Positions 1 to 64,000 of a stretch of 64,000 nucleotides of DNA are shown in pieces. Each line of letters starts with the position of its first letter. Position 1 is the stretch's first letter. Origin of the DNA: Escherichia phage PSD2002; sequence record OK335775.1. One strand, 5' to 3'. Under the pieces are notes generated by a model that made no database searches, was not told where the DNA came from, and saw only the letters and a list, made by a program, of their open reading frames with translations. The position numbers were made by a program, and so were the translations under genes.

Positions 1-134
1 GCATGCGGGTTGTTGCCATCACCTAATTGGTAATAAAGCTCATTGAAGTTGTTATTAATTTTAAGACCACCTGCACGCAGGTAATCACCGGACCCGTCAT
101 CAACAGCGGAACCTACTTTTAAGTCTTGTTTCAT
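1..134 (-). CDS. 10: baseplate wedge protein gp10, N-terminal 44 codons (gene continues beyond window start)
   Basis: Reverse-complement translation MKQDLKVGSAVDDGSGDYLRAGGLKINNNFNELYYQLGDG resembles the T4 gp10 N-terminus as I recall it; ATG at 132-134 overlaps the gp9 stop. Confidence 0.8.
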   Translation of the reverse strand, partial: MKQDLKVGSAVDDGSGDYLRAGGLKINNNFNELYYQLGDGNNPH

Positions 135-994: not shown

Positions 995-1024
995 AGGTAT
1001 GCCTCATTATTGATATACTGTATT

Positions 1025-1056
1025 TATTAAACCCCGAAAGGGCCTTGCGGCCCTTA
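1025..1056 (-). other. intercistronic tandem hairpins between genes 8 and 9
   Basis: On the minus-strand RNA: GGGCC-GCAA-GGCCC then CCC-UUUC-GGG followed by U-rich sequence. Confidence 0.4.
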
Positions 1057-7135: not shown

Positions 7136-7136
7136 T

Positions 7137-9224: not shown

Positions 9225-10989
9225 CAGATACTTTAGCTAATGAACCGCCATCCATATGCACAGTATTTGATGCGTTTAAATTAATGTTCGTCGCTGCAAA
9301 ATTTAAATCTTGTTCGACATTTACATCCATATTTTGAGCATTGATTGTGGCCTTTTGTTTAACGCTTATATCTGCATTCTGGTTGACATTAACTGTTGTA
9401 TCTTTTTCAACCGTAATATATGCTTCTTGTTCAACAGTTATATCAGCAGTACCCATAATAACTATTTTAACATTTCCTTTAACAAGCAGAGTTCCATTAC
9501 CTTCTACAGTTTTGGTTTCATTCCCTCGAATATGAATGCTTTCAGACCCATCAGTTTGACGGCGCACGTTTGCCATATTATAATAGGTTTCATCGCCACC
9601 AACGTTGACTTTATTATTACCACCAACATAAGTATTTGAATCGCCTTGGGTCATATAATAACCATCGGCTACCGTCTTAGAAGTTTTACGTCCATCAGGA
9701 GCAACTTCTTCATAACTACCGGTAGGATGGATTAAACGGTATCGTTCTTGCCCTGGGGTATTATCGAATTCTTGGATATGCCCGCCTTCAGTTTGCATGG
9801 TTTGGACATATGGATATTCGCCTTTATAACTAGAATCAGGTTCTTTAAAAAGAATCCTTGTGTCTTCTGGAGTCCACGGGTCGGCAGGGTCTGAATTTGT
9901 AGGGGCCACAAAGGTTTGAATCATTCTATACGAACGGCCATTAAATGACCTTTCTTTAGGGGCCATAATACCATATGATTCCATGTTACCTGTGAGGATA
10001 ATCATTGACACCCTTGATGCGCGACCTTTAGTTTGGTTAAACCATACCGAATTACGGGCTTCTTCAAATGCCTTTTTATAATCGCCTATTAACATTGCAC
10101 TAAGCATTCCACGGAATTTAGCAAGCCCACCTAATCCCATTTGGAAAGCCATGTTTTCAAGAGCCATTTGTCTCGAACGGTTTTCTTTATTATAAACAGG
10201 ACCTACAACACTATGCAGGCCTATATCATTTTGGACTTTTTTAAGGTCGTCTTGGAATAATTTAGAAACCTCGTCCATTGATATTGCACCAGGGTTACCT
10301 TTAACTTCTCGTCCTACCTGATTAGATAATATTTTGTTTATTTGATTCATATCTCTAATAGGTTGTGGCGTAATAAGGTGACCTATACCTATAGTAGGAT
10401 AACCTTCGGTATCCCAATATACCTTCAGTCTAAGCCCTTCATCACGATGAAGCATGTTTTCTATTGTGAAATTAGGATTATCATCAGGCTTGACTTGGCT
10501 CAAATCCAAACCGTCTGGGTTAATACCTACATCGGTGTTTGCATCTTGTATTACGTTGGAAGTGGCATCATATCCAACTTCACCACCTCGGTTTAAAGCC
10601 GCGGCATCATTACCTAAATAAAGTGGGTATTGACCTGTCGGGTCGCTAAAACCTTCATTAGGATTAGCCTTTTGTCTTGAAGCGGAACCGTATGTACCAA
10701 GGACCAGTCCGTTTAATTTCCACTTATCAAGAAAATGCCCATAAACCTGTGTACCAGGAACCATACCGGTCATGGCGGTTTGAATACCTGAAACAGAGGC
10801 TGAAGATGTAGGCATTAATACCGACATCCATGGTAAATCTTCTGTACGAAGGCCTTTTACTGGACCTTGCACTTTTTCGTATGGATGCATGCCCCATACG
10901 CGCACGCGTACTCGGCCTTGTTGGAGTGGGTCCATTCGGTCTTCAACTACGCCGACGAACCAACTGACATTATCAGACATGTTAATCAT
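9202..10989 (-). CDS. 5: baseplate hub subunit and tail lysozyme gp5
   Basis: 595 aa; N-terminal OB region NVSWFVGVVEDRMDPLQQGRVRVRVWGMHP; lysozyme segment DEGLRLKVYWDTEGYPTIGIGHLI; C-terminal repetitive VxVxxN beta-helix. Confidence 0.9.
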   Translation of the reverse strand: MINMSDNVSWFVGVVEDRMDPLQQGRVRVRVWGMHPYEKVQGPVKGLRTEDLPWMSVLMPTSSASVSGIQTAMTGMVPGTQVYGHFLDKWKLNGLVLGTYGSASRQKANPNEGFSDPTGQYPLYLGNDAAALNRGGEVGYDATSNVIQDANTDVGINPDGLDLSQVKPDDNPNFTIENMLHRDEGLRLKVYWDTEGYPTIGIGHLITPQPIRDMNQINKILSNQVGREVKGNPGAISMDEVSKLFQDDLKKVQNDIGLHSVVGPVYNKENRSRQMALENMAFQMGLGGLAKFRGMLSAMLIGDYKKAFEEARNSVWFNQTKGRASRVSMIILTGNMESYGIMAPKERSFNGRSYRMIQTFVAPTNSDPADPWTPEDTRILFKEPDSSYKGEYPYVQTMQTEGGHIQEFDNTPGQERYRLIHPTGSYEEVAPDGRKTSKTVADGYYMTQGDSNTYVGGNNKVNVGGDETYYNMANVRRQTDGSESIHIRGNETKTVEGNGTLLVKGNVKIVIMGTADITVEQEAYITVEKDTTVNVNQNADISVKQKATINAQNMDVNVEQDLNFAATNINLNASNTVHMDGGSLAKVSGGNVQVG

Positions 10990-11591
10990 TAGAGGGCTTT
11001 CTCCATTTCTCTAATTAAAGCGGAAACAAAGGACTCGATGTCATTAGGGTCTATAATCTTTATTTCGCGCTTATATTCATTTTTACGAATGGCGTCCTCG
11101 TAAATATCTACTGCAGCCAAAGGACCTTCATATTGAGGATAACGTTTTTCTGTATCACCTTTATCGTACCAAGTATAAGGATTTTCCGGAGTATTTACTA
11201 GATTCCAGAATTTCTCACCCTTTTCATTGACATGATAAAGGACTTGGTTTCCGCCTGCAGTAGCATAACGTTGAATAGCTGCTTGATACGCAGATTCTTG
11301 GCCTGTAATCCAGCCGTAATAAGGGTCATATACGTTATTACACATCAATAAAACCCAATATAATTGCACGTTACCATAAAGTTGATGGGCTAATTCTTCT
11401 GGACGAGGGGCCCCACTGATATAATATGTTTTAAGTGTATAATTTTTAGCCACTTTATCAAAATATTCTTTATAGTTTCTAAATATATCAGTCATCGGTA
11501 CGCTCAGTACATCGGCATCAGTTAATGAGCCGGAATCTGGCTTGACTGTTTTTGATTCGTAATTTATAGGATCGAAAAATGAGAAGAGCAT
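10989..11591 (-). CDS. 53: baseplate wedge subunit gp53
   Basis: 200 aa (T4 gp53 is 196 aa); position upstream of gene 5; divergent late promoter immediately upstream. Confidence 0.75.
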   Translation of the reverse strand: MLFSFFDPINYESKTVKPDSGSLTDADVLSVPMTDIFRNYKEYFDKVAKNYTLKTYYISGAPRPEELAHQLYGNVQLYWVLLMCNNVYDPYYGWITGQESAYQAAIQRYATAGGNQVLYHVNEKGEKFWNLVNTPENPYTWYDKGDTEKRYPQYEGPLAAVDIYEDAIRKNEYKREIKIIDPNDIESFVSALIREMEKAL

Positions 11592-12992: not shown

Positions 12993-13583
12993 ATGAACGG
13001 TTTATTTAACCAAACTAACACTACTAACTTTATCTTAGAGGTTAGTGACGCAGGAATGACGCAGGCATTCAAATTGAACGTACAAGATGTAACACTACCG
13101 GGTATCCATATTCCGGTCTCAGACGTCCCGGGATCGACCCAGGGCATACATCGTGCTAAGCTGCCAGGTTCTACGGTAGAATTCGATCCATTGATTGTGA
13201 ACTTTCTTGTAGACCGTGAATTGAAATCATGGCTTGATGTTTATAAGTGGATGTTGTCATTAAACAACTATGTAACCCATGATTCAGAAGCCTGGCACCC
13301 TAAAGGACAACCGGAAGCTATCACCCTCCACATCCTTGATAACAACAAACAAAAAATCGTAATGAGCATTCATTACTACGGTGGTTGGCCATCTGACCTC
13401 TCGGAAATCCAGTACTCTTATAAAGAGGATTCTGACCCGGCGATAATCGCCACAGCAACATTCAACTTCAAATCGTTTGCTGTAGAAATAGATGGTACAA
13501 TAGTTACAGGTCGTCCACAAATTGATTCGTATGCCGAACAACGAGTGGCTCGTATGTCTATGCATCCATCTATGAGAAAATAA
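12993..13583 (+). CDS. 3: tail completion / sheath stabiliser protein gp3
   Basis: 196 aa ORF in the T4 gene 3 position between genes 2 and 1. Confidence 0.6.
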   Translation: MNGLFNQTNTTNFILEVSDAGMTQAFKLNVQDVTLPGIHIPVSDVPGSTQGIHRAKLPGSTVEFDPLIVNFLVDRELKSWLDVYKWMLSLNNYVTHDSEAWHPKGQPEAITLHILDNNKQKIVMSIHYYGGWPSDLSEIQYSYKEDSDPAIIATATFNFKSFAVEIDGTIVTGRPQIDSYAEQRVARMSMHPSMRK

Positions 13584-14333
13584 TGAAACTAATATCAATT
13601 GTAGGAATCAAACGTAGCGGTAAGGATACCGTTGCTAACTATGTAATCGAAAATATGGATTCGGTAAAATTTCAGCTCGCAGGTCCTATTAAAAAGTATC
13701 TGGCTGAAGCCTATGAATACATCTCTGATGACCCTGTATTCGACCGTAGTTACATGCCTAAACTAGATTTTAACTGTTTTGAAGGTATCGGTTACGACCG
13801 TGAAGAAATCCTTCCTTTAAAACCAGATGATGTGATTGATATCTTTGAACATGCTATTGTCAAACTGAATAATATCCTTCCTATTCCAGGAATTGATACC
13901 GTAACTACGTATCATTATGGTCCTACCATTCAATATCTGTCTGAAGAAACAAAAGACCAACTGTTTGAAGTAATAAATAAAAATAACAATTGGTCAGTAC
14001 GTCGTCTCATGCAGACCCTTGGGACTGATATTATTGTTAACCAATTTGATAAGATGTATTGGGTTAAGTTGTTCGCTTTAGACTATTTTGATAAAATATA
14101 CTCTGATGCGAAATACTATGTCGTACCTGATGTTCGTCAAACACACGAAATTGATTCGCTCAGAGCGATGGGTGCTACGATTATTCATGTAGTTCGCGCT
14201 GAAACCGGTCAAGTACAAGACTCGCACATCACTGAAGCGGGTCTACCAATTTTACCCGGTGACGTTGTTATTGAAAATAACGGCACTCTTTCTGAACTAT
14301 ACACCACTATTGATAAATTATTAGGAAATAAAA

Positions 14334-14341
<8 letters not shown>
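13583..14341 (+). CDS. 1: deoxynucleoside monophosphate kinase gp1
   Basis: P-loop SIVGIKRSGKDT; WSVRRLMQTLGTDIIVNQFDKMYWVKLFALDY closely resembles T4 gp1. Confidence 0.9.
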
Positions 14342-44721: not shown

Positions 44722-45014
44722 AACGTTTTGAAGAATATGTAGCTTTGAATTGGACCGCTTGGGACAAGTTTGGTGATGATTGGTACTTCCATGACTGTGA
44801 CCTGAACCCGGAATTCTTTAAAGGTAAGGAAGACGACCTCAAGGACATCTATGCTCTGTCAGAGATTCATGGTATTAAACCTACTGTCTATTTCTCTTTT
44901 GATGATACTGGGTTCCTTGTACAGGTTTACGTTCCATACGGAACTAATGAAGACGAAGTTCTAAAAACCTGGGACTACCAAGGAGTTATTTCCTGTGGAC
45001 CAAAAGTTAACTAA
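44718..45014 (+). CDS. hypothetical protein
   Basis: 98-aa ORF. Confidence 0.4.
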   Translation: MKRFEEYVALNWTAWDKFGDDWYFHDCDLNPEFFKGKEDDLKDIYALSEIHGIKPTVYFSFDDTGFLVQVYVPYGTNEDEVLKTWDYQGVISCGPKVN

Positions 45015-45312
45015 AATTGAGATTTACGGTATCCCTGAGACAGTCATGCGCTGTCCAGGGTGCATTGCTGTTCTATCGCTCCTAAATTCCCTTTCTATCC
45101 CACATACTTTCTATCCTGTGATTAACCAGACGCCGTCAGGCGCAGTATATGACAAGCCTCTTATAGTATCATTGGCCAAACGTGCAGGCTTCAAGAGCTT
45201 AGCGATACGCTATCCTGTCATATTTGTCGATAATAAGAAAATAGAAAATATTCCTGCCTTCAAATCGCTTTTGATTGAACTTGGTTATGACCGAGATTTA
45301 ATTGAAGATTAG
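44995..45312 (+). CDS. glutaredoxin-like protein (nrdH position)
   Basis: CPGC motif; lies between gene 49 and gene 55 where T4 has nrdH/nrdG/nrdD; no nrdD- or nrdG-sized ORF here. Confidence 0.4.
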   Translation: MDQKLTKIEIYGIPETVMRCPGCIAVLSLLNSLSIPHTFYPVINQTPSGAVYDKPLIVSLAKRAGFKSLAIRYPVIFVDNKKIENIPAFKSLLIELGYDRDLIED

Positions 45313-50405: not shown

Positions 50406-50604
50406 ACATGATTTTCATATTGGCGATGGCCGGTTCGGTAATGTAGAATGGGACGTGGATGGTTCTTGGTATACCGGAACTATGTATGCCACTTCTGAAT
50501 ATTCTGAAGGTGTTTCATGGGCCATGGAACTTGACGACGTGTTTGCTTCTTCCGAAGAAATGCTAGAATATGTTGAACAAACAATTCGTGAGAACAATAC
50601 ATGA
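50380..50604 (+). CDS. small acidic protein (start uncertain)
   Basis: ORF overlapping the upstream gene end; alternative ATG at 50398. Confidence 0.35.
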   Translation: MLIMMKMYKHDFHIGDGRFGNVEWDVDGSWYTGTMYATSEYSEGVSWAMELDDVFASSEEMLEYVEQTIRENNT

Positions 50605-52283
50605 AAACGTTTAAGTTAAAGAAAGTAACGTATAAAAATATTATGTCTGTAGGCCAGCAACCTATTACAATCCAACTTGATAAGGTCCAAAAGACCTTAG
50701 TCACCGGTAAAAATGGCGCTGGGAAATCTACGTTCCTTGAAGCGGTAACATTTGCTCTGTTTGGTAAGCCTTTTCGTGATGTTAAGAAAGGGCAATTAAT
50801 TAACTCAAGTAACAAGAAAGACCTTTTGGTCGAACTGTGGATGGAATATGATGGCAAAGAATACTATATCAAACGCGGGCAAAAACCCAACGTTTTTGAA
50901 ATCTCTTGTGGCGGTGAACGTCTTGATGAATCTGCCAGCAGTAAAGACTTCCAAGCAGAATTTGAACAGCTTATCGGAATGTCATATGCCAGTTTCAAAC
51001 AGATTGTCGTACTTGGTACAGCAGGGTATACCCCTTTCATGGGTTTGTCGACCCCTGCGCGCCGAAAGCTTGTGGAAGACCTGTTAGAGGTTTCTGTATT
51101 AGCGGATATGGACAAGTTGAACAAATCTTTGATTCGTGAGACTAATAGCCAAATCCAGGTAATCGACGTTAAACAGGATTCTATTACCCAGCAAATTAAA
51201 ATTTATAATGACAACGAAGAACGTCAGCGTAAATTATCCGGCGAGAACGCAGCACGTCTACAGTTAATGTACGATGAGCTAGTTAAAGAAGCCAGGACTG
51301 CGAAGGGCAATATAGAAAAACTGACTGATGAATTACTCAATGTCATCGTCGATGATGACCCTAGCAACTCTATGAGTGACCTGAGCAATAAAGGATTTGC
51401 AATCAAGAATGATATGGCAACCTTTACTAAGGTCGTGAAATTATACGAAACCGGTGGTAGTTGTCCTACATGTATGCAAGGATTGGAAGAACATGGAAAC
51501 ATCCTTACTAAAATTAAGGATAAGAACTTTGAGCTTCAAAAATCTTTGGATAAGATTAATGAGCAGTACCAAGAACTCAAGCTCATTAAGGACCAAGTAA
51601 CCGAACAACGTAATAAAGCGCTGGCTATTAAATCTCAGATAGCTACTCATAAGCAACAAGCCATTACTGCCGTAGAGAAAGCTAAAAAAGTTAAAGTATT
51701 AATCGACCAAGCAGCTGCTGAGTTCGTAAGTAATGCCGAAGAGATTGCCGCGCTTCAAGCAGAGCTTGATAAAATCGTCTCTACCAAATCGTCCTTGGTA
51801 ATGGAAAAATATCATCGTGGAATTCTGACAGAAATGTTGAAGGACACAGGTATTAAAGGTTCCATTATTAAGAAATACATTCCTATCTTTAATAAGCAGA
51901 TAAATTCTTATTTGAAGATTATGGAAGCGGACTACGTCTTTACACTAGACGAAGAGTTCAATGAGACGATTAAATCACGTGGACGTGAAGACTTTAGTTA
52001 TGCTTCATTTTCACAGGGTGAGAAAGCACGTATTGATATCGCACTACTTTTTACATGGCGCGATATTGCTTCTAAGGTATCAGGTGTTAATATCAGCACG
52101 TTAATTCTTGATGAGGTATTTGACAGTGCTACTGACGCTGAAGGCGTTAAGACCATTGCAACCATCTTGAATAGCCTTGAGGATACGAACGTGTTCATTA
52201 TCTCTCACCGAGACCATGACCCACAAGCTTATGGCCAACATCTTCAAATGAAGAAAGTTGGACGATTCACGGTGATGGAATGA
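50601..52283 (+). CDS. 46: recombination endonuclease subunit gp46 (Rad50-like ATPase)
   Basis: 560 aa; Walker A GKNGAGKST; long central coiled coil; C-terminal LILDEVFD. Confidence 0.9.
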   Translation: MKTFKLKKVTYKNIMSVGQQPITIQLDKVQKTLVTGKNGAGKSTFLEAVTFALFGKPFRDVKKGQLINSSNKKDLLVELWMEYDGKEYYIKRGQKPNVFEISCGGERLDESASSKDFQAEFEQLIGMSYASFKQIVVLGTAGYTPFMGLSTPARRKLVEDLLEVSVLADMDKLNKSLIRETNSQIQVIDVKQDSITQQIKIYNDNEERQRKLSGENAARLQLMYDELVKEARTAKGNIEKLTDELLNVIVDDDPSNSMSDLSNKGFAIKNDMATFTKVVKLYETGGSCPTCMQGLEEHGNILTKIKDKNFELQKSLDKINEQYQELKLIKDQVTEQRNKALAIKSQIATHKQQAITAVEKAKKVKVLIDQAAAEFVSNAEEIAALQAELDKIVSTKSSLVMEKYHRGILTEMLKDTGIKGSIIKKYIPIFNKQINSYLKIMEADYVFTLDEEFNETIKSRGREDFSYASFSQGEKARIDIALLFTWRDIASKVSGVNISTLILDEVFDSATDAEGVKTIATILNSLEDTNVFIISHRDHDPQAYGQHLQMKKVGRFTVME

Positions 52284-52973: not shown

Positions 52974-53672
52974 ATGAAATTCTCTAAAGAAACTCTGAAC
53001 ATTCTGAAAAACTTCTCCGGTATTAACCCAGGTATCATGCTTAAACCTGGTAACACTATTCTAACTCGTTCAGTAACGGGTGCAAGTTATGGTGAAGCTA
53101 CTGTAAATGACACCTTTGATATCGAAGCCGCAATCTACGACCTGAACGGCTTCTTAAGTATTCTGTCATTGGTATCTGAAAGTGCTGAAGTTTCGGTAAG
53201 TGAAGACCAAACCACTTTAATTATTAAAGACCAACGTTCAACTATTAAGTGGCCTATTGCCGACCCAAGCACAATTGCATTCCCAAGCAAAGCTATTCCA
53301 TTCCCGGTGGCTGAAGTTATTTTTGACCTTAAAGCCGAAGATTACCAGCAGTTGATGCGTGTGTCCTCTGGACTGAGTATTGATACATTTGCTATTACTG
53401 TAGACAATGGTAAAATTGTAATCAATGGCTACAAACAAGTTGATGATAAGGACCTGGCCCGTCCATTGTATTCCTTAGTGGTTGCAGACCATGATGGCCC
53501 TGAATTCAAATTCATTATCAACAAAACTAATATGAAAATGATGCCTGCCGATTACCATGTATTGTTATGGGCCCGTGGTGAAGGCCAGGACGCTCGTTTC
53601 GCAGCCAAGTTTGAAGGTTCACAAGCTTCTTATGTATTGGCTATGGAAGCAGGCTCAAGCCACTCGTTCTAA
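52974..53672 (+). CDS. 45: sliding clamp gp45
   Basis: 232 aa; N-terminus resembles T4 gp45 (LKNF..IN.GIMLK ... AIYDLNGFL.ILSLV). Confidence 0.9.
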   Translation: MKFSKETLNILKNFSGINPGIMLKPGNTILTRSVTGASYGEATVNDTFDIEAAIYDLNGFLSILSLVSESAEVSVSEDQTTLIIKDQRSTIKWPIADPSTIAFPSKAIPFPVAEVIFDLKAEDYQQLMRVSSGLSIDTFAITVDNGKIVINGYKQVDDKDLARPLYSLVVADHDGPEFKFIINKTNMKMMPADYHVLLWARGEGQDARFAAKFEGSQASYVLAMEAGSSHSF

Positions 53673-54250
53673 TGTATATATGTTATCATAATACGATAAC
53701 CAACACTAAAACCAAGTGTGTCTATCATTATTTTGGTAGACACCGTGTTACTGCTGAAGAATACTACGGTACAGGTAAGTTTGTTAAGAAATGCAAACGA
53801 GAAAATGCTATTACTCCAGGTCTTTGGGAGTTTTGTGTTGAAGTTATCCATACAGTGGATACGTTTAAAGAAGCCAAGATTATTGAAGAAGAGCTTGTTA
53901 AAGAAGGCATATCAAAATATGGTATCCTTTGTGTTAATAAGAATCCTGGTGGTGATGGCGGTGTGGATTACCACACCGAAGAATCTAAACGTAAAATGTC
54001 AGAAACTAGAACAGGAAAATCAAGAATATTTTCCGAAAGTCATAAAGAAAATTTAAGTAAACGAGCCAGAAAATACTCTGATGTTTGGTCCGAACCTGTA
54101 TATTCAAATCTTAAAACCATTTGGCTGGAAACAGGTATGTTAAAACGCGGACGGTTTAGTACGCTTTTACAAAAATATGGGTATAATTATTCTGCGAATG
54201 AATTGAATAAAATTGTTAAACATTTTAATGAGGAAAATAATAATGAGTAA
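53672..54250 (+). CDS. GIY-YIG-like (seg-type) homing endonuclease inserted between genes 45 and 44
   Basis: N-terminal YICY ... VYHYFG (degenerate GIY-x10-YIG); C-terminal basic module similar to the HNH endonuclease at 30192; T4 has no gene between 45 and 44. Confidence 0.5.
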   Translation: MYICYHNTITNTKTKCVYHYFGRHRVTAEEYYGTGKFVKKCKRENAITPGLWEFCVEVIHTVDTFKEAKIIEEELVKEGISKYGILCVNKNPGGDGGVDYHTEESKRKMSETRTGKSRIFSESHKENLSKRARKYSDVWSEPVYSNLKTIWLETGMLKRGRFSTLLQKYGYNYSANELNKIVKHFNEENNNE

Positions 54251-56451: not shown

Positions 56452-58159
56452 ATGCAAGAATTCTATTTGACAGTCGAACAAATCGGTGATAATATTCTCG
56501 AACGTTACATCGATAAAAATGGTAACGAACGTAGTCGTGAAGTTCCATACAAGCCTACAATGTTTATGCATGCTAATCCAGAGCAAGCCGTAAAATACAT
56601 TGATATCTATGGTAAGGGTTGTGTTAAGAAAGAATTCGATTCTATGCGTGATGCATCCCAATGGATGAAACGTATGGATGATATGGGTCTCGAAGCCCTG
56701 GGTATGGACGACTATAAATTAGCCTATTTGTCTGATACCTATCGTAAAGAAATCAAATATGATTCTTCTAAGATTCGTATTGCTAACTTCGACATCGAGG
56801 TAACATCTCCTGATGGATTCCCTGAACCAGCTCAGGCTAAACATCCTATCGATGCCATTACCCACTACGACTCGATTGACGATAAATTCTATGTATTCGA
56901 CCTTTTAGTTTCGCCTTATGGTACTGTTGAAGAGTGGTCGATTAAAATCGCTGAGAAACTCCAAGACGAAGGTGGTGACGAAGTTCCACAGGAAATCATT
57001 GACAAAATCGTTTATCTTCCGTTTAATTCTGAAGAAGAAATGATGCTTGAGTACTTGAATTTCTGGCAACAGAAAACTCCTGTGATTTTGACTGGATGGA
57101 ACGTTGAGTCGTTTGACGTACCGTACGTTTATAACCGTCTGAAAAATCTGTTCGGTGAGAACACTGCTAAGCGATTAAGCCCACATCGTAAAACTCGCGT
57201 TAAAGTTATTGAGAACATGTACGGTGCTCGTGAAATCATTACATTGTTCGGTATCTCTGTTCTGGATTATATCGACCTTTATAAAAAATTCAGCTTCACC
57301 AACCAGCCTTCTTATTCTCTGGATTATGTTTCTGAATATGAATTGAAAGTGGGTAAGTTGAAATATGATGGTCCAATCTCTAAGTTACGTGAGACGAACC
57401 ACCAACGATATATTTCCTATAACATTATCGACGTATATCGTGTTGTGCAAATTGATATGAAACGCCAGTTCATTCTTCTGAGTTTGGACATGGGTTATTA
57501 TGCCAAGATGCAGATTCAGTCGGTGTTCAGTCCAATTAAGACTTGGGACGCTATTATCTTTAATAGCCTTAAAGAACAAGGCAAGGTAATTCCACAAGCT
57601 CGTTCGCACGTGGTCCAACCTTATCCTGGCGCTTTCGTTAAGGAACCGATTCCTAACGCTTACAAATACGTAATGAGTTTCGACCTTACATCTCTGTACC
57701 CGAGTATCATTCGACAAGTGAATATAAGCCCAGAGACCATCGCAGGGACATTCGCTAACGCACCGATACATGAATATATTGCTGGAACTGCTCAGCGTCC
57801 TAGCGACACCTACAGTTGCTCTCCTAACGGCATGATGTATTATAAAGACCGTGAAGGTGTGATTCCTACAGAAATCACCAAGGTATTCTTGCAGCGTAAA
57901 GAACATAAAGGTTATATGCTTGCAGCTCAACGTAATGGTGAGTTAATTAAAGAAGCATTGGAAAATCCTAATCCCTCAGTTGATAGTCCACTGGATATCG
58001 ATTATCGTTTTGACTTCTCCGACGAAATCAAAGCCCAGATTAAAGCACTGTCAGCGCCTTCTTTAAGAGAAATGTTGAAGAAAGCCGAGCTCACTGAAGT
58101 TGCAGGTAACACTGCTCAGATTAACCGTAAGTTGCTTATCAACAGCCTGTATGGTGCGT
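56452..58159 (+). CDS. 43: DNA polymerase gp43, exon 1 (N-terminal exonuclease domain and start of polymerase domain)
   Basis: Starts MQEFYLTVEQIGDNILERYIDKNGNE after AAAGGAAA; ends ...NRKLLINSLYGAL; the unspliced frame hits TAA at 58168-58170. Confidence 0.85.
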
Positions 58160-58389
58160 TAACCAAATAACTCGGCGCACTTTAAACTATGTGAATTCAG
58201 GGAACATCTCTAGTAGACAATCCTGAGCGAAGCCTCTATGAGGAACGTGCAACGACTATCCGAAAGGAGTACACCCAAGTGGGTGGAAGCGCATAGCATC
58301 GAAAGATGATGATATAGTCTGCTCTGCATGGCGACATGCAGCTGGATATAATTCCGGGCTGAGCTTAACGACCTCAGTTGAACACCGTG
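58160..58389 (+). ncRNA. putative self-splicing group I intron (ORF-less, 230 nt) in gene 43
   Basis: Exon GUGCGU pairs with intron GCGCAC (58175-58180) with U.G at the splice site; GACUA (58254) and UAGUC (58315) form a P7-like pairing; terminal G at 58389; splicing restores GAL-GNVWFRYYD. Confidence 0.65.
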
Positions 58390-59393
58390 TGGGTAACGTC
58401 TGGTTCCGCTACTATGATTTGCGTAATGCAACTGCAATCACACTGTTCGGTCAAATGGCCCTCCAATGGATTGAACGTAAGGTTAACGAATATCTGAATA
58501 GCGTGTGTAAAACTGAAAACCAGAAGTTCGTGCTCTATGGTGATACTGACTCCATTTATGTTAAGGCAGATGCAATCATCAATAAAGTAGGCGAAGATAA
58601 ATTTCGTGACACTAACCACTGGGTCGACTTCTTAGATAAATTTGCACGTGAACGTATGGAACCAGCTATTGATGCAGGCTTCCGTGAGATGTGCGAGTAT
58701 ATGAACAACAAACAGCACTTGATGTTCATGGACCGAGAAGCTATCGCAGGTCCTCCACTTGGTTCTAAAGGTCTTGGTGGATTCTGGACAGGCAAGAAAC
58801 GTTATGCACTGAACGTTTGGGACATGGAAGGTACTCGTTATGCCGAACCGCACTTGAAAATCATGGGCCTTGAAACTCAGAAATCAAGTACACCTAAAGC
58901 AGTTCAGAAAGCTCTGAAGGAATGTATCCGTCGTATGCTTCAGGAAGGCGAGGCATCTTTGCAAGAATATTTCAAACAGTTTAATAAGGAATTTAACGAA
59001 CTCAACTATGTAAGCATTGCAGCAGTATCCAGTGCTAACAACATCGAGAAATATAATGAAGGTGGATTCCCGGGTTCTAAATGTCCATACCACATCAAAG
59101 GTTGCTTAGCTTACATGCGTGCTTCTGCAGGTGATTTGACTATGCCTCGTATCGTTGATGGTGAAAAGGTATATGTACTGCCACTTAAAGAAGGCAACCC
59201 GTTTGGTGAAGCTTGTATGGCATGGCCGTCAGGTATTGAACTTCCGGTTCAGATTCGTGACCAAGTCCTCCGTTGGATGGACTACAACGTACTGTTCCAA
59301 AAGACCTTTATCAAGCCTCTGACCGGTTTTACTGAGTCTGCTAAAATCGACTACGAGAAAAAAGCAACATTATTTGATATGTTCGACTTTTAA
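58390..59393 (+). CDS. 43: DNA polymerase gp43, exon 2 (C-terminal polymerase domain)
   Basis: GNVWFRYYDLRNATAI ... YGDTDSIYV (polymerase motif C) ... SLFDMFDF; no SD upstream of the in-frame GTG. Confidence 0.85.
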
Positions 59394-59395
59394 GT

Positions 59396-59425
59396 GTTTA
59401 CATACCACAAGGAACGTGGTAGTAT
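59396..59425 (+). promoter_or_regulatory. T4-type early promoter cassette
   Basis: GTTTAC ... TGGTAGTATCCTTCCTATCAA. Confidence 0.55.
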
Positions 59426-59455
59426 CCTTCCTATCAACTACATGAGGAAATTACA

Positions 59456-59692
59456 ATGGAAGCTTTAATCGTTAGTGCTGGTGTTTTAGGATTTGGTTCT
59501 CTGGTTATTATGTTCATCGGTTACTTTTTACCATGGATTCTGGCTCTTCTACGAGGCACTCGTAGTAATGTCGGAATTTTCTTCCTAAACCTTCTGTTAG
59601 GATGGACTATGATTGGTTGGGTAGTGGCTTTAATCTGGGCTATCGTCGCTGAACGTAAATCAAATGCACAAATCATTATTGTTAAGCAATGA
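59456..59692 (+). CDS. imm: superinfection immunity membrane protein Imm-like
   Basis: 78-aa two-TM protein immediately downstream of gene 43, as imm is in T4. Confidence 0.55.
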   Translation: MEALIVSAGVLGFGSLVIMFIGYFLPWILALLRGTRSNVGIFFLNLLLGWTMIGWVVALIWAIVAERKSNAQIIIVKQ

Positions 59693-59826
59693 AAATAATT
59701 ATTTTATTTCTTATAATGACTGCCTTTACCATTTATTGGGCAGTGGCAATTCCACCAATGATTCCGACACTAATCATCGGATGGATTATTCTTATAGCAC
59801 AAATTAAGTATAACTGTTTTAATTGA
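59689..59826 (+). CDS. small membrane protein (45 aa)
   Basis: ATGA overlap with the imm stop; MKIIILFLIMTAFTIYWAVAIPPMIPTLIIGWIILIA. Confidence 0.35.
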   Translation: MKIIILFLIMTAFTIYWAVAIPPMIPTLIIGWIILIAQIKYNCFN

Positions 59827-59833
59827 GGATATT

Positions 59834-60334
59834 ATGAAAAAGTTAATTATCGCAATGAGTATGCTCCTATCAGGTTGCGCGGTCCAATATGGTGATGCAG
59901 TTTCGGCCGATGAAGTTGGTAAAGCTCGTATCGCAGCTGAACAGAAACAATTCGATGGCGAAATGAAATTCCGTGCAGGTTCTGGACTTGTGTACACCCG
60001 AGCTAATAATCAATGCGGTAATAACTGTGCAAAATATGCTCAACGAGAAATCGAATTCCAACGTGAACAAGAGTCCAAGCGTGAAGCGGTACTAGCCAAA
60101 CACCAGGCAGAAATGAAGCGTCAAGATGATTTGTACAAAAAGCAGAAACTGTATGCGATGTGCGTAAACCATATCAATCTACAGATTTCCATCCACGAGG
60201 CTCGTTATTACGAAATGCTCGAAACCGAGAGCTTCGGTAAAGCTCGTGATTATAAGAAACAAATCAATAAGCTCAAGACCAAAGCACTGGCGGCAATAGA
60301 ACAGTGTATTGAAATCGGTAAAGATAAGATTTAA
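59834..60334 (+). CDS. lipoprotein
   Basis: Signal peptide with lipobox LLSGC; charged helical mature domain. Confidence 0.55.
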   Translation: MKKLIIAMSMLLSGCAVQYGDAVSADEVGKARIAAEQKQFDGEMKFRAGSGLVYTRANNQCGNNCAKYAQREIEFQREQESKREAVLAKHQAEMKRQDDLYKKQKLYAMCVNHINLQISIHEARYYEMLETESFGKARDYKKQINKLKTKALAAIEQCIEIGKDKI

Positions 60335-60394
60335 GCAATACCAATTTATTAAAAATAGTGTATAATGTACCTACATTCACTTGAGGAACAGATA

Positions 60395-62068
60395 ATGAAA
60401 AAGGTTGTTATTTTAGGCGCGGGTCTTGGCTCACGGTTGTATCCAATTACCAACGAAATCCCGAAGGTACTGGTTAACTACAAACAACATACTGTATTAA
60501 AACATTTGTATGATTTGTATAGTAACCAATCAGATGAAATTATTCTGGTTATTCACAGCAAATTTAACGACCTCGTTAAAGGCTATATTAAATCCATTAA
60601 CATGATTAATAGTGATAAGCCTAAATTCACTATTCGTAACGTAGATGTGGCCAATGGTTCTGCTCATGCTATTGATTGCATTGCTGAAGATATCATTGGG
60701 CACAACGTCTTGTTTAACTGGTGTGATATTATTCCTGAAGGGCATAAAGTTGAGTGGGATAACGACTACTGTTATACCTATGGGACTGACTGTCGTTTTA
60801 CATTTGAAGAGCCATACTTGCGCGAAATTGGCACAGGTGGTGGTGTAGTTGGTTTGTATCAGGTTGCTAATTGGGCAGGTTTCAACCGTTCTAATTATGG
60901 CGAAGACCTGGCCGACAACCTGGATTCGATGGTCCATTTGACCGAACGTAAGCTGGACTTTGTGGTTGATGTCGGTGACAAATTGAAACTGGCTAAGGCC
61001 CATGAAGATTCTGAAATTAACCGTGAATTTAATAAATTAGAGTTCACTGAGAATCTGGCTATTAAAGTACCAACTAACGAATTGGGTAAAGAAATCCAAT
61101 CTAAAGAAATCAATTGGTATAATTCTATTGATTCTGAATTTGTTCCGAGCATTGTAGACTTTGCTCCAGGTGAATTCATTAAAATGGAACGTATCTTTGG
61201 TCGTACCATGGCAGATGCCTACCGGTTTATGGCTAAAGAAACTAAAGTCCTCATGGTTTATAAGGTCATTAGTGCATTACGTTCATTCGGTGGAACTATT
61301 GATAACCCATCTGATGAGCAATGGTATTCTGATGTTAAGAAAGAAGTACTAGATAAGGTCCTTATTCGTAATGCATCAATTTCTGGTCTGATTGAAGGCT
61401 TTGCTCCACAAGGTATTACCCATGTTAACGACTTCAAGGTAGGCGACCCTGAAAAACTTCTTCGCCATGCACTAGAAATTCTGTCTGAACATAAAGAACC
61501 GTACCAACTTATTCATGGTGACCCGCACTACAGTAATATTATGCTGTCGGACGAAGGTGATATTAAAATCATCGACCCACGTGGTTATTTTGGTAATAGT
61601 TCTAAAGGCCCTGCGATTTATGATGAAGCTAAGGTGCTTTATTCTATCGATGGTTATGACAAATTTAACTCCGACCCTCTATGGGGTGGCTTAACTCGTA
61701 ACGGAACTCGAGTATTCGTTGATATTGAAAAGGTTATGCCTTTAGATGATATTCCAATGTGTACATTTAAGCACAAGCTCTGGATTGCCGTTATCTGGAT
61801 GGCATTAGCAGGTTACTTTAAGAATAATCCTCTGAAAGCTCTAGGTGCTTATTACAACGGTCTATACCAACTGAGTGTGCTGCTGAAGCGGCATCCTCGT
61901 AAGCGTAAGCTTATTACAGGTGAATTTGTCGATGAAGTTCGTGACCCTATCACGGCTCAAATTATCACTCGTTGTCCTGATAAGTGGGTTTTGCTTGACC
62001 AGGAAACTGGTGTAAAATATAAACCTACAGGTTCTACTGAACTCCACAAACAATGGAAGAAAATTTAA
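60395..62068 (+). CDS. bifunctional sugar-1-phosphate nucleotidyltransferase / anomeric sugar kinase (APH-ChoK fold)
   Basis: N-terminal ILGAGLGSRLYPITNEIPKVLV (sugar nucleotidyltransferase G-x-G-x-R signature); C-terminal LIHGDPHYSNIML ... IKIIDPRG (aminoglycoside/choline kinase-type catalytic loop). Confidence 0.65.
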   Translation: MKKVVILGAGLGSRLYPITNEIPKVLVNYKQHTVLKHLYDLYSNQSDEIILVIHSKFNDLVKGYIKSINMINSDKPKFTIRNVDVANGSAHAIDCIAEDIIGHNVLFNWCDIIPEGHKVEWDNDYCYTYGTDCRFTFEEPYLREIGTGGGVVGLYQVANWAGFNRSNYGEDLADNLDSMVHLTERKLDFVVDVGDKLKLAKAHEDSEINREFNKLEFTENLAIKVPTNELGKEIQSKEINWYNSIDSEFVPSIVDFAPGEFIKMERIFGRTMADAYRFMAKETKVLMVYKVISALRSFGGTIDNPSDEQWYSDVKKEVLDKVLIRNASISGLIEGFAPQGITHVNDFKVGDPEKLLRHALEILSEHKEPYQLIHGDPHYSNIMLSDEGDIKIIDPRGYFGNSSKGPAIYDEAKVLYSIDGYDKFNSDPLWGGLTRNGTRVFVDIEKVMPLDDIPMCTFKHKLWIAVIWMALAGYFKNNPLKALGAYYNGLYQLSVLLKRHPRKRKLITGEFVDEVRDPITAQIITRCPDKWVLLDQETGVKYKPTGSTELHKQWKKI

Positions 62069-62451
62069 TGTCGCATCGAGTAGAAAATAAGCCCCATTTA
62101 TGTTTTGACATCGATAATACAATCACGGTTTGGAACCACGACCGTGATTATGAAAACTTTAAACCGGACACCGAAATGGTGTCCATGATTAATAAGCTTT
62201 ATGATGAAGGCCATGAGATTACATTGTTCACTGCTCGTGGTATGACTTCATGTGGCCCTGGTCGAATCTTGGTTGAAGTAGTTCCTGCATTAGTTAAGAA
62301 CCTTGAAAAGATTGGTTTGAAATACCATAATTTGCTTACACATAAGCCGAGTTATACTTTTATCATCGATGACCGAGCAATCCGTCCTGACCACTTTAAA
62401 GAAATGGTTCGTGAAGGAACTCTTGAAACCTATAAGGCATATCATCCGTGA
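62068..62451 (+). CDS. HAD-superfamily phosphatase
   Basis: Motif I LCFDIDNTIT (DxDxT); start overlaps the upstream stop (TAATG). Confidence 0.6.
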   Translation: MSHRVENKPHLCFDIDNTITVWNHDRDYENFKPDTEMVSMINKLYDEGHEITLFTARGMTSCGPGRILVEVVPALVKNLEKIGLKYHNLLTHKPSYTFIIDDRAIRPDHFKEMVREGTLETYKAYHP

Positions 62452-62984
62452 AACCAAAAATCATTATTATCGACGGCCCGGATAATTCCGGGAAGTCTGC
62501 TTTAATTGAATCACTTTTATCTGATAAGAAATATCGTCTTATCGATTTCCCTAAAAAGATTAATGGCAAATGCATTTCATTAGGGACCGATAATGACAAG
62601 GCTTTAGTCGAGACGTTGTATAAGTTTTTAGACCCTAATTTCGTTTACATCCTTGACCGTGGTTATCCAAGTAATATTGTTTACTCAGGATTCCTTCGTG
62701 GTGAAATGGACCCTTATGTGGAACTAGCAGATTGGATTGATTTCAAAAAAGAATTCAATATCATTGAGATTATTTTAACCCGTAATCCGTTGGATGAAGA
62801 CTTTGAAGATGACCTTATTAAATTAACCAAAGATGAGTTCAATCTAACTATCCGGCAATATGAAACATGTTTTGAAAACGTGTTTAAAATCTTAAATCAC
62901 GACGGCCATAATAACTTGCTTAACGTCGATATGGTAGAATTAAAACGTCTGAATGAATATATTGAAAATAAGGTGAATAAATGA
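62448..62984 (+). CDS. P-loop (deoxy)nucleotide/nucleoside kinase-like protein
   Basis: IIIIDGPDNSGKSALIESL resembles thymidylate/dNMP kinase P-loops; GTG start overlapping the upstream stop. Confidence 0.5.
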   Translation: MKPKIIIIDGPDNSGKSALIESLLSDKKYRLIDFPKKINGKCISLGTDNDKALVETLYKFLDPNFVYILDRGYPSNIVYSGFLRGEMDPYVELADWIDFKKEFNIIEIILTRNPLDEDFEDDLIKLTKDEFNLTIRQYETCFENVFKILNHDGHNNLLNVDMVELKRLNEYIENKVNK

Positions 62985-63679
62985 AACACATTACCGCTGT
63001 TAGTTTTGAAAACGCGTTTAAGCAAATGAACGAAGAAATCCTGGAAGCTCCACAGTTTGCAGTTGATTCTCGTATCGGCCGTTGTTATGAAATTGGTTCT
63101 GCTTCGGTAGAAGTACTGGATGCAAGCACCTATAAATTCACCGACCCTCGTATTAATCGTATCAACTACGATTATGCCGAATCTTTCTGGAAATTTATGA
63201 TTTCTGGTGGTACTGACGCCGCCGAAGCATTTAAGGAATACCCTAATGTTGCTAAGTTCATTGATAAGCCGAAAAGTGACGTATTGCCTGCAAACTTCAA
63301 CACTTTCTATGGACCTCGAATTGTGGCCCAACTCCCAGCCCTACTTAAAGAGCTTAAAGAGAAGCCTAACTCGCGAAGAGTTGTGTTCCAAATTCTCCAA
63401 GAACAAGACCAAGCCCTCCTTGATTCTGACGAATCCCTAGAATATCCATGTACCGATTCGGTAACATATTATATTCGTGATGGACGTCTGTACGCACATA
63501 CTCATATGCGTTCACAGAACTGTGCTATCGTTATGCAGCTGGATTTCTATCTGCAGGGTAAACTGATGGCCTTTATTGCTGAACAGTGTGGTGTTGGTCT
63601 GGGTACATATTCCCATACTATGGTTAGTGCACACGTATTTGAACGTGATTTTGACTACGTTCGAGGATTCCTGAAATGA
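62981..63679 (+). CDS. 42: dCMP hydroxymethylase-like (thymidylate synthase fold) gp42 homolog
   Basis: 232 aa; EYPCTDSVTYYIRDGRLYAHTHMRSQN resembles the catalytic-Cys region of T4 gp42 / thymidylate synthase as I recall it; position downstream of imm. Confidence 0.6.
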   Translation: MKHITAVSFENAFKQMNEEILEAPQFAVDSRIGRCYEIGSASVEVLDASTYKFTDPRINRINYDYAESFWKFMISGGTDAAEAFKEYPNVAKFIDKPKSDVLPANFNTFYGPRIVAQLPALLKELKEKPNSRRVVFQILQEQDQALLDSDESLEYPCTDSVTYYIRDGRLYAHTHMRSQNCAIVMQLDFYLQGKLMAFIAEQCGVGLGTYSHTMVSAHVFERDFDYVRGFLK

Positions 63680-64000
63680 GCCTGTTTATCGTTCCTATTT
63701 TCAGTATGCGTAGTTACGAAACAGGTGAATATGCCGTCCTTAAGGACGGTAATTTTCAACTCCATTTAAACCGTGCTCGCCCAGGTGATTATCTGGCTTA
63801 TCCTAGAAATTCGAGCGATATCAAAGAATGTATTGAATTGTTTCCTGAACTGAATTTCGTACCACTTTGGTATAAAGAAAATGCTTATGAAACTCGTAAA
63901 CATTTTTGGTCTGAAAATGAGTTCGTCGTTGATTCATTAATCGAATACTACGACTGCTCAGGATTAGTAACCGATATCACAGGTTATGATGGTGCTCAGA
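63676..64000 (+). CDS. hypothetical protein, N-terminal 108 codons (possible DNA glycosyltransferase in the beta-gt position; runs past window end)
   Basis: ATGA overlap with the gp42 stop; open to the window edge; functional guess from synteny only. Confidence 0.4.
   Translation, partial: MSLFIVPIFSMRSYETGEYAVLKDGNFQLHLNRARPGDYLAYPRNSSDIKECIELFPELNFVPLWYKENAYETRKHFWSENEFVVDSLIEYYDCSGLVTDITGYDGAQ

Follow-up and report, generated by a model that had tools for sequence, protein, structure and literature searches.

The DNA analysed here, referred to as the window, is a stretch of 64,000 nucleotides from Escherichia phage PSD2002 (OK335775.1); it is Dhakavirus DNA, approximately 96% identical to that of WG01, QL01, Bp7, and IME341. 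Five plus-strand open reading frames occupy its 3′ end (Table 1), all at the coordinates first given for them, with the imm gene and a lipoprotein gene immediately upstream. The first frame is taken to start at 60395 rather than at an upstream alternative ATG (60365), because a GAGGA sequence lies 8 nt before 60395 and this start is common to all homologues. The stop and start codons overlap at the four junctions of the cassette (TAATG, GTGA, ATGA, and ATGA), consistent with translational coupling. The preliminary description of three coupled frames encoding a nucleotidyltransferase/kinase fusion, a HAD phosphatase, and a P-loop kinase is confirmed in its coordinates, overlaps, and domains, and T4 indeed lacks these three genes, as nothing sits between imm and gene 42 in that phage. 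The reported lack of alpha-gt also holds; the window, taken together with the remainder of the Dhakavirus IME341 genome, contains no homologue of T4 alpha-gt or T4 beta-gt.

Table 1. Features of the window that bear on the proposed DNA modification.
Feature	Position	Strand	Length	Assignment and remarks
Fused nucleotidyltransferase/kinase	60395–62068	+	557 aa	AfhE-like bifunctional enzyme; N-terminal sugar-1-phosphate nucleotidyltransferase, C-terminal APH/choline-kinase-like sugar kinase
HAD phosphatase	62068–62451	+	127 aa	AfhF-like; predicted arabinose-1,5-bisphosphate to arabinose-1-phosphate
P-loop kinase	62448–62984	+	178 aa	Thymidylate-kinase-like nucleotide kinase, RB69 gp45 family; P-loop and DRG motif; GTG start
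Thymidylate synthase (TS) homologue	62981–63679	+	232 aa	TS superfamily; predicted 5-hydroxy-dCMP synthase (flavin- and O2-dependent cytosine C5 hydroxylase)
Glycosyltransferase	63676–64000	+	First 108 aa (297 aa in IME341)	Predicted DNA arabinosyltransferase 1, RB69 gp46:47 family; gene cut by the window end
gp1-type dNMP kinase	13583–14341	+		Outside the cassette; PHROG 139 deoxynucleoside monophosphate kinase, E 2e-58
Gene 55	47428–47982
Gene 47	49123–50142
Gene 46	50601–52277

The fusion enzyme contains a Pfam NTP_transferase domain at residues 3–100 (E 2e-8) and an APH domain at residues 347–417 (E 2e-5) which, together with the HAD domain of the second frame, are the profile matches that had been expected. 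It aligns over its full length with the LC53 protein (42.5% identity over 574 columns, E 5e-144), and with the two halves of the RB69 enzyme (p053 and p052, together gp52:53) at 41–44% identity. The catalytic motifs of both domains are intact (GxGxR...K and HGDxxxxN...D), being represented by GAGLGSRL at residue 8, HGDPHYSN at residue 374, and IIDPRG at residue 392, and the residues Gly10, Arg14, Lys24, and Asp111, as well as His374-Gly-Asp376...Asn381 and Asp394, are unchanged throughout 44 homologues. An AlphaFold2 model of the fusion resolves two domains with a pLDDT of 92.7, and Foldseek matches the N-terminal domain to GalU, MurU, and RmlA and the C-terminal domain to APH(2''). The N-terminal domain is predicted to be a UDP-arabinofuranose pyrophosphorylase and the C-terminal domain a D-arabinose-5-phosphate 1-kinase. 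In each of the metagenomic proteins P0068, P0075, and P0093, a single polypeptide carries a HAD, a SIS, a nucleotidyltransferase, and a kinase domain, which links these four activities to one another. A full-length Dhakavirus homologue, IME08 gp43, has already been cited (Thomas 2018).

The HAD phosphatase possesses the motifs of its superfamily (FDIDNT, of the DxDxT type, TARG, and IIDD), and is 64% identical to RB69 gp51 and 70% identical to the LC53 protein. It matches PHROG 1238 (E 4e-42), the capsule-biosynthesis phosphatase model TIGR01689 (E 4e-14), and a solved phage protein, PDB 9IQW (E 7e-56, 65% identity), whose entry name is "capsule biosynthesis protein". These names, as well as the lipoprotein gene and imm directly upstream, might suggest that the nucleotide sugar serves a target other than DNA, such as the host envelope or capsule, and that the adjacency of the TS homologue is incidental. 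However, overlapping stop and start codons tie the sugar genes to those for the hydroxylase and the DNA glycosyltransferase, the same genes are linked in all arabinosyl-5-hydroxycytosine phages, and RB69 DNA has been treated in vitro with UDP-arabinofuranose as the sugar donor, which leaves this explanation hardly credible.

The TS homologue, which had been described as a gp42-like hydroxymethylase, shows a Pfam Thymidylat_synt match (E 5e-14) and is far closer to RB69 gp48 (78.8% identity), a flavin- and O2-dependent enzyme shown experimentally to make 5-hydroxy-dCMP, than to T4 gp42 (25% identity over 159 residues, E 1.6e-10). Structure entries give the same picture, with matches to the solved Mosigvirus enzyme (PDB 9IQU/9IQC, E 1e-125; 79% identity to 9IQU, itself 98.7% identical to RB69 gp48) and to the T4 gp42 structure 1B5D (E 5e-6). 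According to the alignment in ThyA numbering, the catalytic cysteine Cys146 and the phosphate-binding arginines Arg126/Arg127 and Arg166 are kept, and the substitutions that specify dCMP (N177D and L143E; PMC13326640) are present as Asp177 and Glu143. Cys146, the acidic residue at position 143 (L143D/E), and N177D are also common to T4 gp42. However, position 169 is asparagine in the TS homologue, RB69 gp48, and LC53, where T4 gp42 and E. coli ThyA have aspartate, and D169N is the proposed predictor of 5-hydroxy-dCMP synthases (Lee et al.); in addition, Glu58 of ThyA is replaced by phenylalanine. A dCMP hydroxymethylase of the T4 gp42 type was therefore rejected, as Glu58 and Asp169, the residues of folate chemistry, are lost and the identity to gp42 is low. 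Judged from its sequence, the TS homologue is very probably a 5-hydroxy-dCMP synthase using flavin and O2, so that the sugar acceptor would be 5-hydroxycytosine.

This assignment bears on the pathway first proposed for the locus, in which a gp42-type enzyme makes hydroxymethylcytosine (hmC), and a host sugar phosphate is dephosphorylated, re-phosphorylated at C1, activated, and transferred to yield arabinosyl-hmC. The RB69 base was named ara-hmC in the original 2018 report, but that assignment has been explicitly corrected, and RB69 DNA carries arabosyl-5-hydroxycytosine instead (PMC13326640, PMC13390438), so the hmC base drawn from RB69 is superseded. The order of the sugar steps is likewise reversed; although dephosphorylation still precedes phosphorylation in Table 1 of Lee et al., their text adopts an order based on HY126 biochemistry, in which, as they report, the kinase of AfhE first converts arabinose-5-phosphate (A5P) into arabinose-1,5-bisphosphate and the HAD enzyme AfhF then removes the 5-phosphate, before nucleotidyl transfer. 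With the close resemblance of the TS homologue to proven 5-hydroxy-dCMP makers, formation of arabinosyl-hmC at this locus is very improbable.

The P-loop kinase contains the motifs GPDNSGKS and LDRGYPSN (of the DR(Y/F/H) type) and matches PHROG 761 "thymidylate kinase" (E 1e-38), with 37% identity to RB69 gp45, and 43% identity to its LC53 counterpart; the Pfam and NCBIfam thymidylate kinase (TMK) models give no match above threshold, and its best PDB match, YorR, is weak (E 0.11). In Rhizobium phage RL38J1, a TMK-like kinase accompanies the hydroxylase and the first glycosyltransferase, and Table 1 of Lee et al. lists galactosyl- and glucosyl-transferases for this phage, with neither a nucleotidyltransferase–kinase nor a HAD enzyme. 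This co-occurrence would place the kinase in the nucleotide branch rather than in the sugar cassette to which it had been assigned, and its substrate may be 5-hydroxy-dCMP or the glycosylated form of this nucleotide. The gp1-type dNMP kinase encoded elsewhere in the window would be needed in the same branch for the conversion of 5-hydroxy-dCMP to 5-hydroxy-dCDP, by analogy with RB69 gp159, which acts on 5-hydroxy-dCMP (PMC13326640).

The frame following the TS homologue occupies the position of T4 beta-gt, and its assignment to a DNA glycosyltransferase is borne out by homology to RB69 gp46:47. The part within the window is 77.6% identical to RB69 p047 and 99% identical to the complete IME341 protein, which in turn shares 67% identity with RB69 p047 and p046 over its full length (296 aa). 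Activity of the first glycosyltransferase on DNA containing 5-hydroxycytosine could not be demonstrated by Lee et al., so the first sugar may be added either on the DNA or on the nucleotide.

By sequence comparison, the cassette genes are all orthologous to those of the RB69 and LC53 clusters, which upholds the earlier view of an RB69-related pathway by which the phage itself encodes the synthesis of an activated pentose, UDP-arabinose, to hypermodify its DNA. The cassette is very probably the Dhakavirus version of the phage arabinosyl-5-hydroxycytosine pathway, with two branches converging on the glycosyltransferase. The present analysis shows the orthology, motifs, fold, gene order, and gene absences; the enzymatic activities are those described in the literature for the orthologues. 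E. coli itself makes A5P, via KdsD/GutQ in Kdo synthesis, and this host D-arabinose-5-phosphate would probably be the starting sugar. The kinase domain of the fusion would phosphorylate A5P at C1 to generate arabinose-1,5-bisphosphate, the HAD phosphatase would take off the 5-phosphate to leave arabinofuranose-1-phosphate, and the nucleotidyltransferase domain would use UTP to form UDP-arabinofuranose. In the nucleotide branch, dCMP supplied by the dCTPase (gp56) would be hydroxylated at C5 by the TS homologue with flavin and O2, and the resulting 5-hydroxy-dCMP would be phosphorylated for the polymerase by the gp1-type dNMP kinase, and probably also by the TMK-like kinase of the cassette. Finally, the glycosyltransferase would link arabinose to the 5-hydroxyl by an ether bond, and since the genome holds a single such transferase, mono-arabinosylation is predicted. 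The 5-hydroxycytosine and arabinose chemistry has been reported in RB69 and DLP3, and Dhakaviruses are listed among the syntenic clusters in the literature; no chemical analysis of Dhakavirus DNA was found in the accessible literature, so both sugar and base are predictions for this lineage.

The least certain point is the predicted conversion of A5P and UTP into UDP-arabinofuranose by the fusion enzyme, whose clade is divergent. The fusion enzymes of the isomerase-less clade are 71–82% identical to one another and 44–48% identical to those of the RB69/LC53 clade, with 42–45% identity between the enzyme described here and those of Mosigvirus and Winklervirus, whereas the TS, HAD, and glycosyltransferase proteins are far less split between the clades. 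The arabinose-5-phosphate isomerase of RB69 (gp55, a SIS-domain protein) has no tblastn match at E<1 in the window or the rest of IME341, and is absent from approximately 75 records of Dhakavirus and Klebsiella phages (Marfavirus) that carry the fusion gene; LC53 and Bragavirus have it, and phages EI and PSTCR6 do not. As all members of the separate clade lack a phage isomerase, their sugar-phosphate specificity could differ, and the enzyme of Dhakavirus, Marfavirus, and PSTCR6 might act on another, abundant host pentose phosphate, for example ribose-5-phosphate, within the same architecture and with the same 5-hydroxycytosine acceptor, which would put a pentose other than arabinose on the DNA. 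Such a substitution is unlikely, as the glycosyltransferase (67%) and HAD phosphatase (63–69%) remain closely similar to arabinose-system proteins, every catalytic motif of the fusion is conserved, the host already supplies A5P, and the isomerase gene adjoins the fusion gene, so that one recombination block accounts for their covariation. With arabinose as the sugar, the Dhakavirus cassette is a minimal set that is predicted to depend on the host for A5P.

Two further RB69 proteins were searched for by tblastn in the window and the rest of IME341. The second arabinosyltransferase (gp3) gives two chance-level matches of 24–35 residues (E 0.65), and the interval from gene 39 to rIIA.1 in IME341 measures only 580 bp. 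The U32-family Fe–S protein (gp50) gives no match at E<1, yet it is the most conserved cluster gene outside Dhakavirus, with 83–86% identity and 13 invariant cysteines across four lineages (Marfavirus, Winklervirus, Bragavirus, and the unclassified Providencia phage PSTCR6). In LC53 and PSTCR6, the U32 gene adjoins a chorismate-mutase-like gene. U32 proteins such as RlhA, TrhP, and UbiU/V hydroxylate their substrates independently of O2 and with prephenate, and the product of RlhA is 5-hydroxycytidine in rRNA, so the phage U32 protein could allow 5-hydroxycytosine to be made anaerobically. Dhakavirus is also without the anaerobic ribonucleotide reductase NrdD/G. The combined proposal that Dhakavirus is a natural minimal arabinosyl-5-hydroxycytosine system, and that U32 in its relatives serves as such an anaerobic route, is speculative and rather doubtful; if true, Dhakavirus would need O2 to modify, and hence to replicate, its DNA, and would also rely on host KdsD/GutQ for arabinose-5-phosphate.

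The pathway itself is already known and not novel; the RB69/HY126/LC53 cluster was predicted in 2018 and experimentally worked out in 2025–2026 (Thomas 2018; Lee 2026). The Mosigvirus clusters, RB69 gp45–gp55 and HY126 Afh, contain orthologues of all five cassette products (AfhE or gp52:53, AfhF or gp51, gp45, gp48, and gp46:47), and lie, as in Dhakavirus, between gene 43 and uvsX. The primary biochemistry is reportedly that of Mahler 2025 and He 2026. Compared with RB69 and HY126, Dhakavirus lacks the gp55 isomerase, the gp50 U32/Fe–S protein, gp49, and the second arabinosyltransferase gp3; its TMK-like gene follows the HAD gene and precedes the TS gene instead of coming after the glycosyltransferase gene, imm and the lipoprotein gene separate its cluster from the polymerase gene, and its fusion enzyme is only 42–45% identical to theirs. 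The closest fusion enzymes are those of the Marfavirus Klebsiella phage EI (82%) and Providencia phage PSTCR6 (72%), which share the order of HAD and TMK-like genes and also lack the isomerase, but keep the U32/Fe–S protein (84–86% identical to RB69 gp50) that Dhakavirus has lost.

The logic is shared with the glucosyl-hydroxymethylcytosine system of T4 (gp42, alpha-gt, and beta-gt), in that dCMP is modified by a TS-superfamily enzyme ahead of replication and then receives its sugar from a transferase that depends on a UDP-sugar, and the neighborhood is the same, with imm followed by the positions of gene 42 and beta-gt. In contrast to T4, the predicted base in Dhakavirus is 5-hydroxy- rather than 5-hydroxymethyl-cytosine, made with flavin and O2 instead of folate, and the sugar donor would be phage-made, whereas T4 uses host UDP-glucose with transferases that have no Dhakavirus homologue. 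The MurNAc salvage of Pseudomonas by AmgK and MurU, one of several pairings of an anomeric kinase and a nucleotidyltransferase, similarly joins an APH-like sugar kinase with a uridylyltransferase of the MurU/RmlA fold, and MurU is among the top Foldseek matches, although the likeness is at the level of the fold only (14–21% identity). In Dhakavirus, the kinase and uridylyltransferase are fused and, since the predicted substrate of the kinase already bears a 5-phosphate, a HAD phosphatase would have to act in an additional step, unlike in the AmgK/MurU pathway.

The reading frames of the cassette overlap at successive junctions (TAATG, GTGA, ATGA and ATGA), and a GAGGA sequence precedes the ATG of the fusion enzyme by 8 nt; the coordinates and translational coupling proposed in the preliminary description are therefore correct. 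Its statement that T4 carries none of these genes between imm and gene 42 also holds, as the two are adjacent in T4. No operon boundaries are claimed, because the counts in a promoter and terminator scan of 59300-64000 did not exceed those of shuffled sequence. Between imm and the cassette lie a hydrophobic ORF and a predicted lipoprotein (MKKLIIAMSMLLSGC...; PHROG 1754, function unknown), the latter 29% identical (E 5e-21) to an LC53 signal-peptide protein encoded between the polymerase and isomerase genes. The window DNA is 94-96% identical over its full length to some fifty T4-like Dhakavirus phages, including WG01, QL01, Bp7, IME341 and MX01. Dhakavirus records label the cassette genes as hypothetical protein, "phosphoheptose isomerase", "thymidylate kinase", "thymidylate synthase" and "RNA polymerase binding protein"; the labels "phosphoheptose isomerase", "thymidylate synthase/dCMP hydroxymethylase" and "RNA polymerase binding protein" are misleading here.

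Coordinates of features in the window and in related phage sequences, with the identity of the cassette proteins to their RB69 and LC53 orthologues
Feature	Sequence	Position	Strand	Size	RB69 orthologue, identity	LC53 identity
NrdH	window	45004-45309				
Putative homing endonuclease ORF	window	53672-54250	+	192 aa		
Gene 43 (DNA polymerase)	window	56452-59393				
Group I intron	window	58160-58389	+	230 nt		
Hydrophobic ORF	window	59689-59826		45 aa		
Predicted lipoprotein	window	59834-60334	+	166 aa		
Fusion enzyme	window	60395-62068	+	557 aa	p053 + p052, 41-44%	42.5%
HAD phosphatase	window	62068-62451	+	127 aa	gp51, 64%	70%
P-loop kinase	window	62448-62984	+	178 aa, GTG start	gp45, 37%	43%
TS homologue	window	62981-63679	+	232 aa	gp48, 78.8%	78.9%
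Last ORF (first glycosyltransferase)	window	63676, continues beyond window end	+	first 108 aa present	p047, 77.6% (first 108 aa)	67.6% (first 108 aa)
U32-family gene (gp50)	L002 (RB69)	6493-7662				
U32-family gene	L009	7675-8835				
U32-family gene	L010 (PSTCR6)	8493-9656				
U32-family gene	L003	9681-10850, and a second interval at 10847-11191				
U32-family gene	L011	7826-8992				
DNA polymerase gene, two pieces	L010 (PSTCR6)	68-4474				

Every cassette protein has an orthologue in the clusters of RB69 (Mosigvirus) and LC53 (Winklervirus), located between gene 43 and uvsX; RB69 p053 and p052 are a single gene split by a sequencing error, and for the last ORF IME341 has a complete orthologue, with 67% identity to RB69 p047+p046. 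The outline first put forward holds, namely an activated pentose made by the phage for DNA hypermodification, with a relationship to RB69. The RB69-type cluster was proposed as a UDP-arabinose module by Thomas et al. 2018 (PMC6024577), who had by then noted that the Dhakavirus IME08 encodes a full-length homologue of the fusion protein, gp43; this IME08 protein is 99.1% identical to that of the window. Lee et al. 2026 (PMC13326640) described mono- to tri-arabinosylated 5-hydroxycytosine (5hoC) in RB69 and DLP3 DNA, in which an ether bond joins the sugar directly to C5, and showed that RB69 gp48 and DLP3 gp80 convert dCMP into 5-hydroxy-dCMP (5hodCMP) with incorporation of 18O2 and a flavin cofactor, and that 5hodCMP is phosphorylated by a gp1-type kinase. 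The older assignment of the RB69 modification as "arabinosyl-hmC" was later described as erroneous. Since the arabinosyl-5hoC system is published and Dhakaviruses are among the lineages listed there with syntenic clusters, the system is not new; published work likewise covers the protection that the pathway gives the DNA of a large group of T4-like phages, phage-therapy candidates included, against restriction enzymes and CRISPR, as well as the reason for the sensitivity of these phages to some type IV systems.

Gene 43 is interrupted in the window by a group I intron without an ORF, which lies within the conserved NSLYGALG motif and is matched by Rfam RF00028 at 58139-58341 (75.9 bits, gathering threshold 50; E 2e-18). 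Removal of the intron, with the exon ending in U and the intron in G, restores a 903-aa polymerase with 99.4% identity to that of IME341, which is uninterrupted, and a match of at least 95% to the intron occurs in only one phage record, vB_EcoM_G2285, likewise in the polymerase gene. An insertion of about 600 bp separates genes 45 and 44 in the window; the ORF found there, which matches the homing endonuclease PHROG 314 (E 9e-17), is not at this position in IME341. The polymerase gene of the unclassified Providencia phage PSTCR6 is annotated as two pieces about 2 kb apart, with a 374-aa ORF in reverse orientation between them; gene 43 is therefore interrupted in PSTCR6 as well.

The fusion enzyme comprises a nucleotidyltransferase and an APH-like kinase, as profile matches to NTP_transferase (residues 3-100) and APH (347-417) indicate. 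Its AlphaFold model is confident (pLDDT 92.7, pTM 0.88). By Foldseek, the structural relatives of the N-terminal domain are GalU, MurU and RmlA, and that of the C-terminal domain is aminoglycoside phosphotransferase; both the profiles and the folds are those anticipated from the sequence. A PDB sequence search returned weak matches to the N-terminal nucleotidyltransferase only, and no solved AfhE. Most of the 194 homologues found in a database search belong to T4-like phages, and in an alignment of 44 sequences the nucleotidyltransferase motif (G10, R14, K24 and D111) and the kinase motifs (H374-G-D376...N381 and D394) are invariant. The second ORF was correctly recognized as a HAD-type phosphatase, matching PHROG 1238 (E 4e-42) and TIGR01689 (E 4e-14) and carrying the DxDxT motif as FDIDNT. 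The order of the sugar-phosphate steps had been wrongly assigned relative to the published HY126-type biochemistry, in which AfhF is, according to the summary of He et al. 2026 in Lee et al. (PMC13326640), a Mg-dependent phosphatase that converts arabinose-1,5-bisphosphate into arabinose-1-phosphate. Three proteins from metagenomes (P0068, P0075 and P0093; about 920-946 aa) join HAD, SIS (arabinose-5-phosphate isomerase-type), nucleotidyltransferase and kinase domains in one chain and thus hold the entire sugar branch in one protein, which is independent support for the pathway. N, I and K residues are abundant in these proteins.

The fourth ORF is a thymidylate synthase (TS) homologue (Pfam E 5e-14) that had been taken for a gp42-like hydroxymethylase producing hydroxymethylcytosine. 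It matches PDB entries 9IQU, 9IQC and 9IR2 with E 1e-125 and 79% identity, 9IQU itself being 98.7% identical to RB69 gp48, but T4 dCMP hydroxymethylase (PDB 1B5D) only with E 5e-6. The window protein was aligned with E. coli ThyA, T4 gp42, RB69 gp48 and the LC53 protein; for the ThyA reference, the length of 264 aa and residues L143, C146, R166, D169 and N177 checked out. In ThyA numbering, the window protein keeps C146 and carries L143E and N177D. Position 169, an aspartate in T4 gp42 and ThyA, is asparagine, the signature proposed by Lee et al. (PMC13326640) for 5hodCMP synthases, and E58, conserved in ThyA and gp42, is phenylalanine in all three hydroxylase-type proteins. These signature residues, together with the identity values, lead us to reject a true hydroxymethylase and to assign the protein, by homology, as a hydroxylase; the modified base is accordingly predicted to be 5-hydroxycytosine.

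The third ORF contains a P-loop and a DRG motif and belongs to PHROG 761 ("thymidylate kinase"), with no significant match to curated thymidylate kinase (TMK) models in NCBIfam or to PDB structures. In Table 1 of Lee et al. (PMC13326640), RB69 and DLP3 each have such a kinase as a neighbour of the hydroxylase and the first glycosyltransferase; the same kinase type with the same neighbours is given for Rhizobium phage RL38J1, for which galactosyl- and glucosyl-transferases and no arabinose enzymes are listed. Because RL38J1 has the kinase without arabinose enzymes, the kinase tracks the 5hoC nucleotide branch rather than the sugar branch; its identification as a P-loop kinase thus stands, and the sugar-branch role once given to it does not. 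Lee et al. (PMC13326640) could not show action of the first transferase on 5hoC DNA and left open the possibility that the first glycosylation takes place on the nucleotide. The TMK-like kinase could possibly phosphorylate 5hodCMP or its glycosylated form.

The Dhakavirus gene set is smaller than those of its relatives. In the window and the rest of IME341 (L001, L006, L007 and L008), together one whole genome, no significant homologue was found of RB69 gp55 (arabinose-5-phosphate isomerase), RB69 gp50 (U32 family) and gp49, the LC53 chorismate-mutase-like protein, T4 beta-gt or the T4 anaerobic ribonucleotide reductase NrdD/NrdG; the second arabinosyltransferase (RB69 gp3; E 0.65) and T4 alpha-gt (E 0.06-0.19) gave only chance-level matches of 24-50 aa. 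Alpha-gt is thus missing, as first noticed, while the window does contain genes 55, 47 and 46. It also encodes NrdH, and the IME341 annotation includes NrdA and NrdB.

The isomerase is also absent from the clusters of Marfavirus EI and PSTCR6, and in the phage collection the fusion gene occurs in 367 records and the isomerase in only 276, a deficit that matches the Dhakavirus and Klebsiella-phage records. The fusion enzymes of the three lineages without the isomerase group together in a separate clade (71-82% mutual identity, 44-48% to RB69/LC53). Where present, the isomerase gene is the immediate upstream neighbour of the fusion gene, and adjacent genes are inherited jointly, which accounts for this correlation; it is not accepted as independent evidence of a changed substrate. 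E. coli KdsD and GutQ make arabinose-5-phosphate for Kdo synthesis and are the likely source of this substrate for the Dhakavirus pathway. A literature search found no chemical analysis of Dhakavirus DNA, and a pentose other than arabinose is a conceivable though unlikely alternative there.

The best conserved cluster gene in the other lineages is that of the U32 family. Among U32 proteins, RlhA, TrhP and UbiU/V act as prephenate-dependent hydroxylases that do not need O2, and the product of RlhA in rRNA is 5-hydroxycytidine. The phage protein matches Peptidase_U32 of Pfam (E 7e-11), with a weak match to UbiU as well. Thirteen of its cysteines are invariant in the related lineages, and the proteins of Marfavirus, Winklervirus, Bragavirus and PSTCR6 share 83-86% identity with RB69 gp50. 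In LC53 and PSTCR6 the U32 gene adjoins one for a protein with a type II chorismate mutase domain; Dhakavirus lacks both. Given the activities of RlhA and its relatives, it is a reasonable hypothesis that the phage protein may be an O2-independent, prephenate-dependent cytosine hydroxylase, providing an anaerobic route to 5hoC in the relatives; if so, Dhakavirus would be a natural knock-out for this route. In Lee et al. (PMC13326640), gp50 appears only as a "sugar or heterocycle reductase", with no discussion of it, and a search of the available literature collection found no paper tying phage U32 proteins to prephenate-dependent hydroxylation.

The remaining interest of the cassette is its minimal gene set and the predictions drawn from it. 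As the smallest known set for this modification, Dhakavirus would be predicted to make mono-arabinosyl-5hoC, to depend on host arabinose-5-phosphate, and possibly to depend on oxygen. Mono-arabinosylation, to be expected from one transferase only, has been reported for Shewanella phage Thanatos (PMC13326640).
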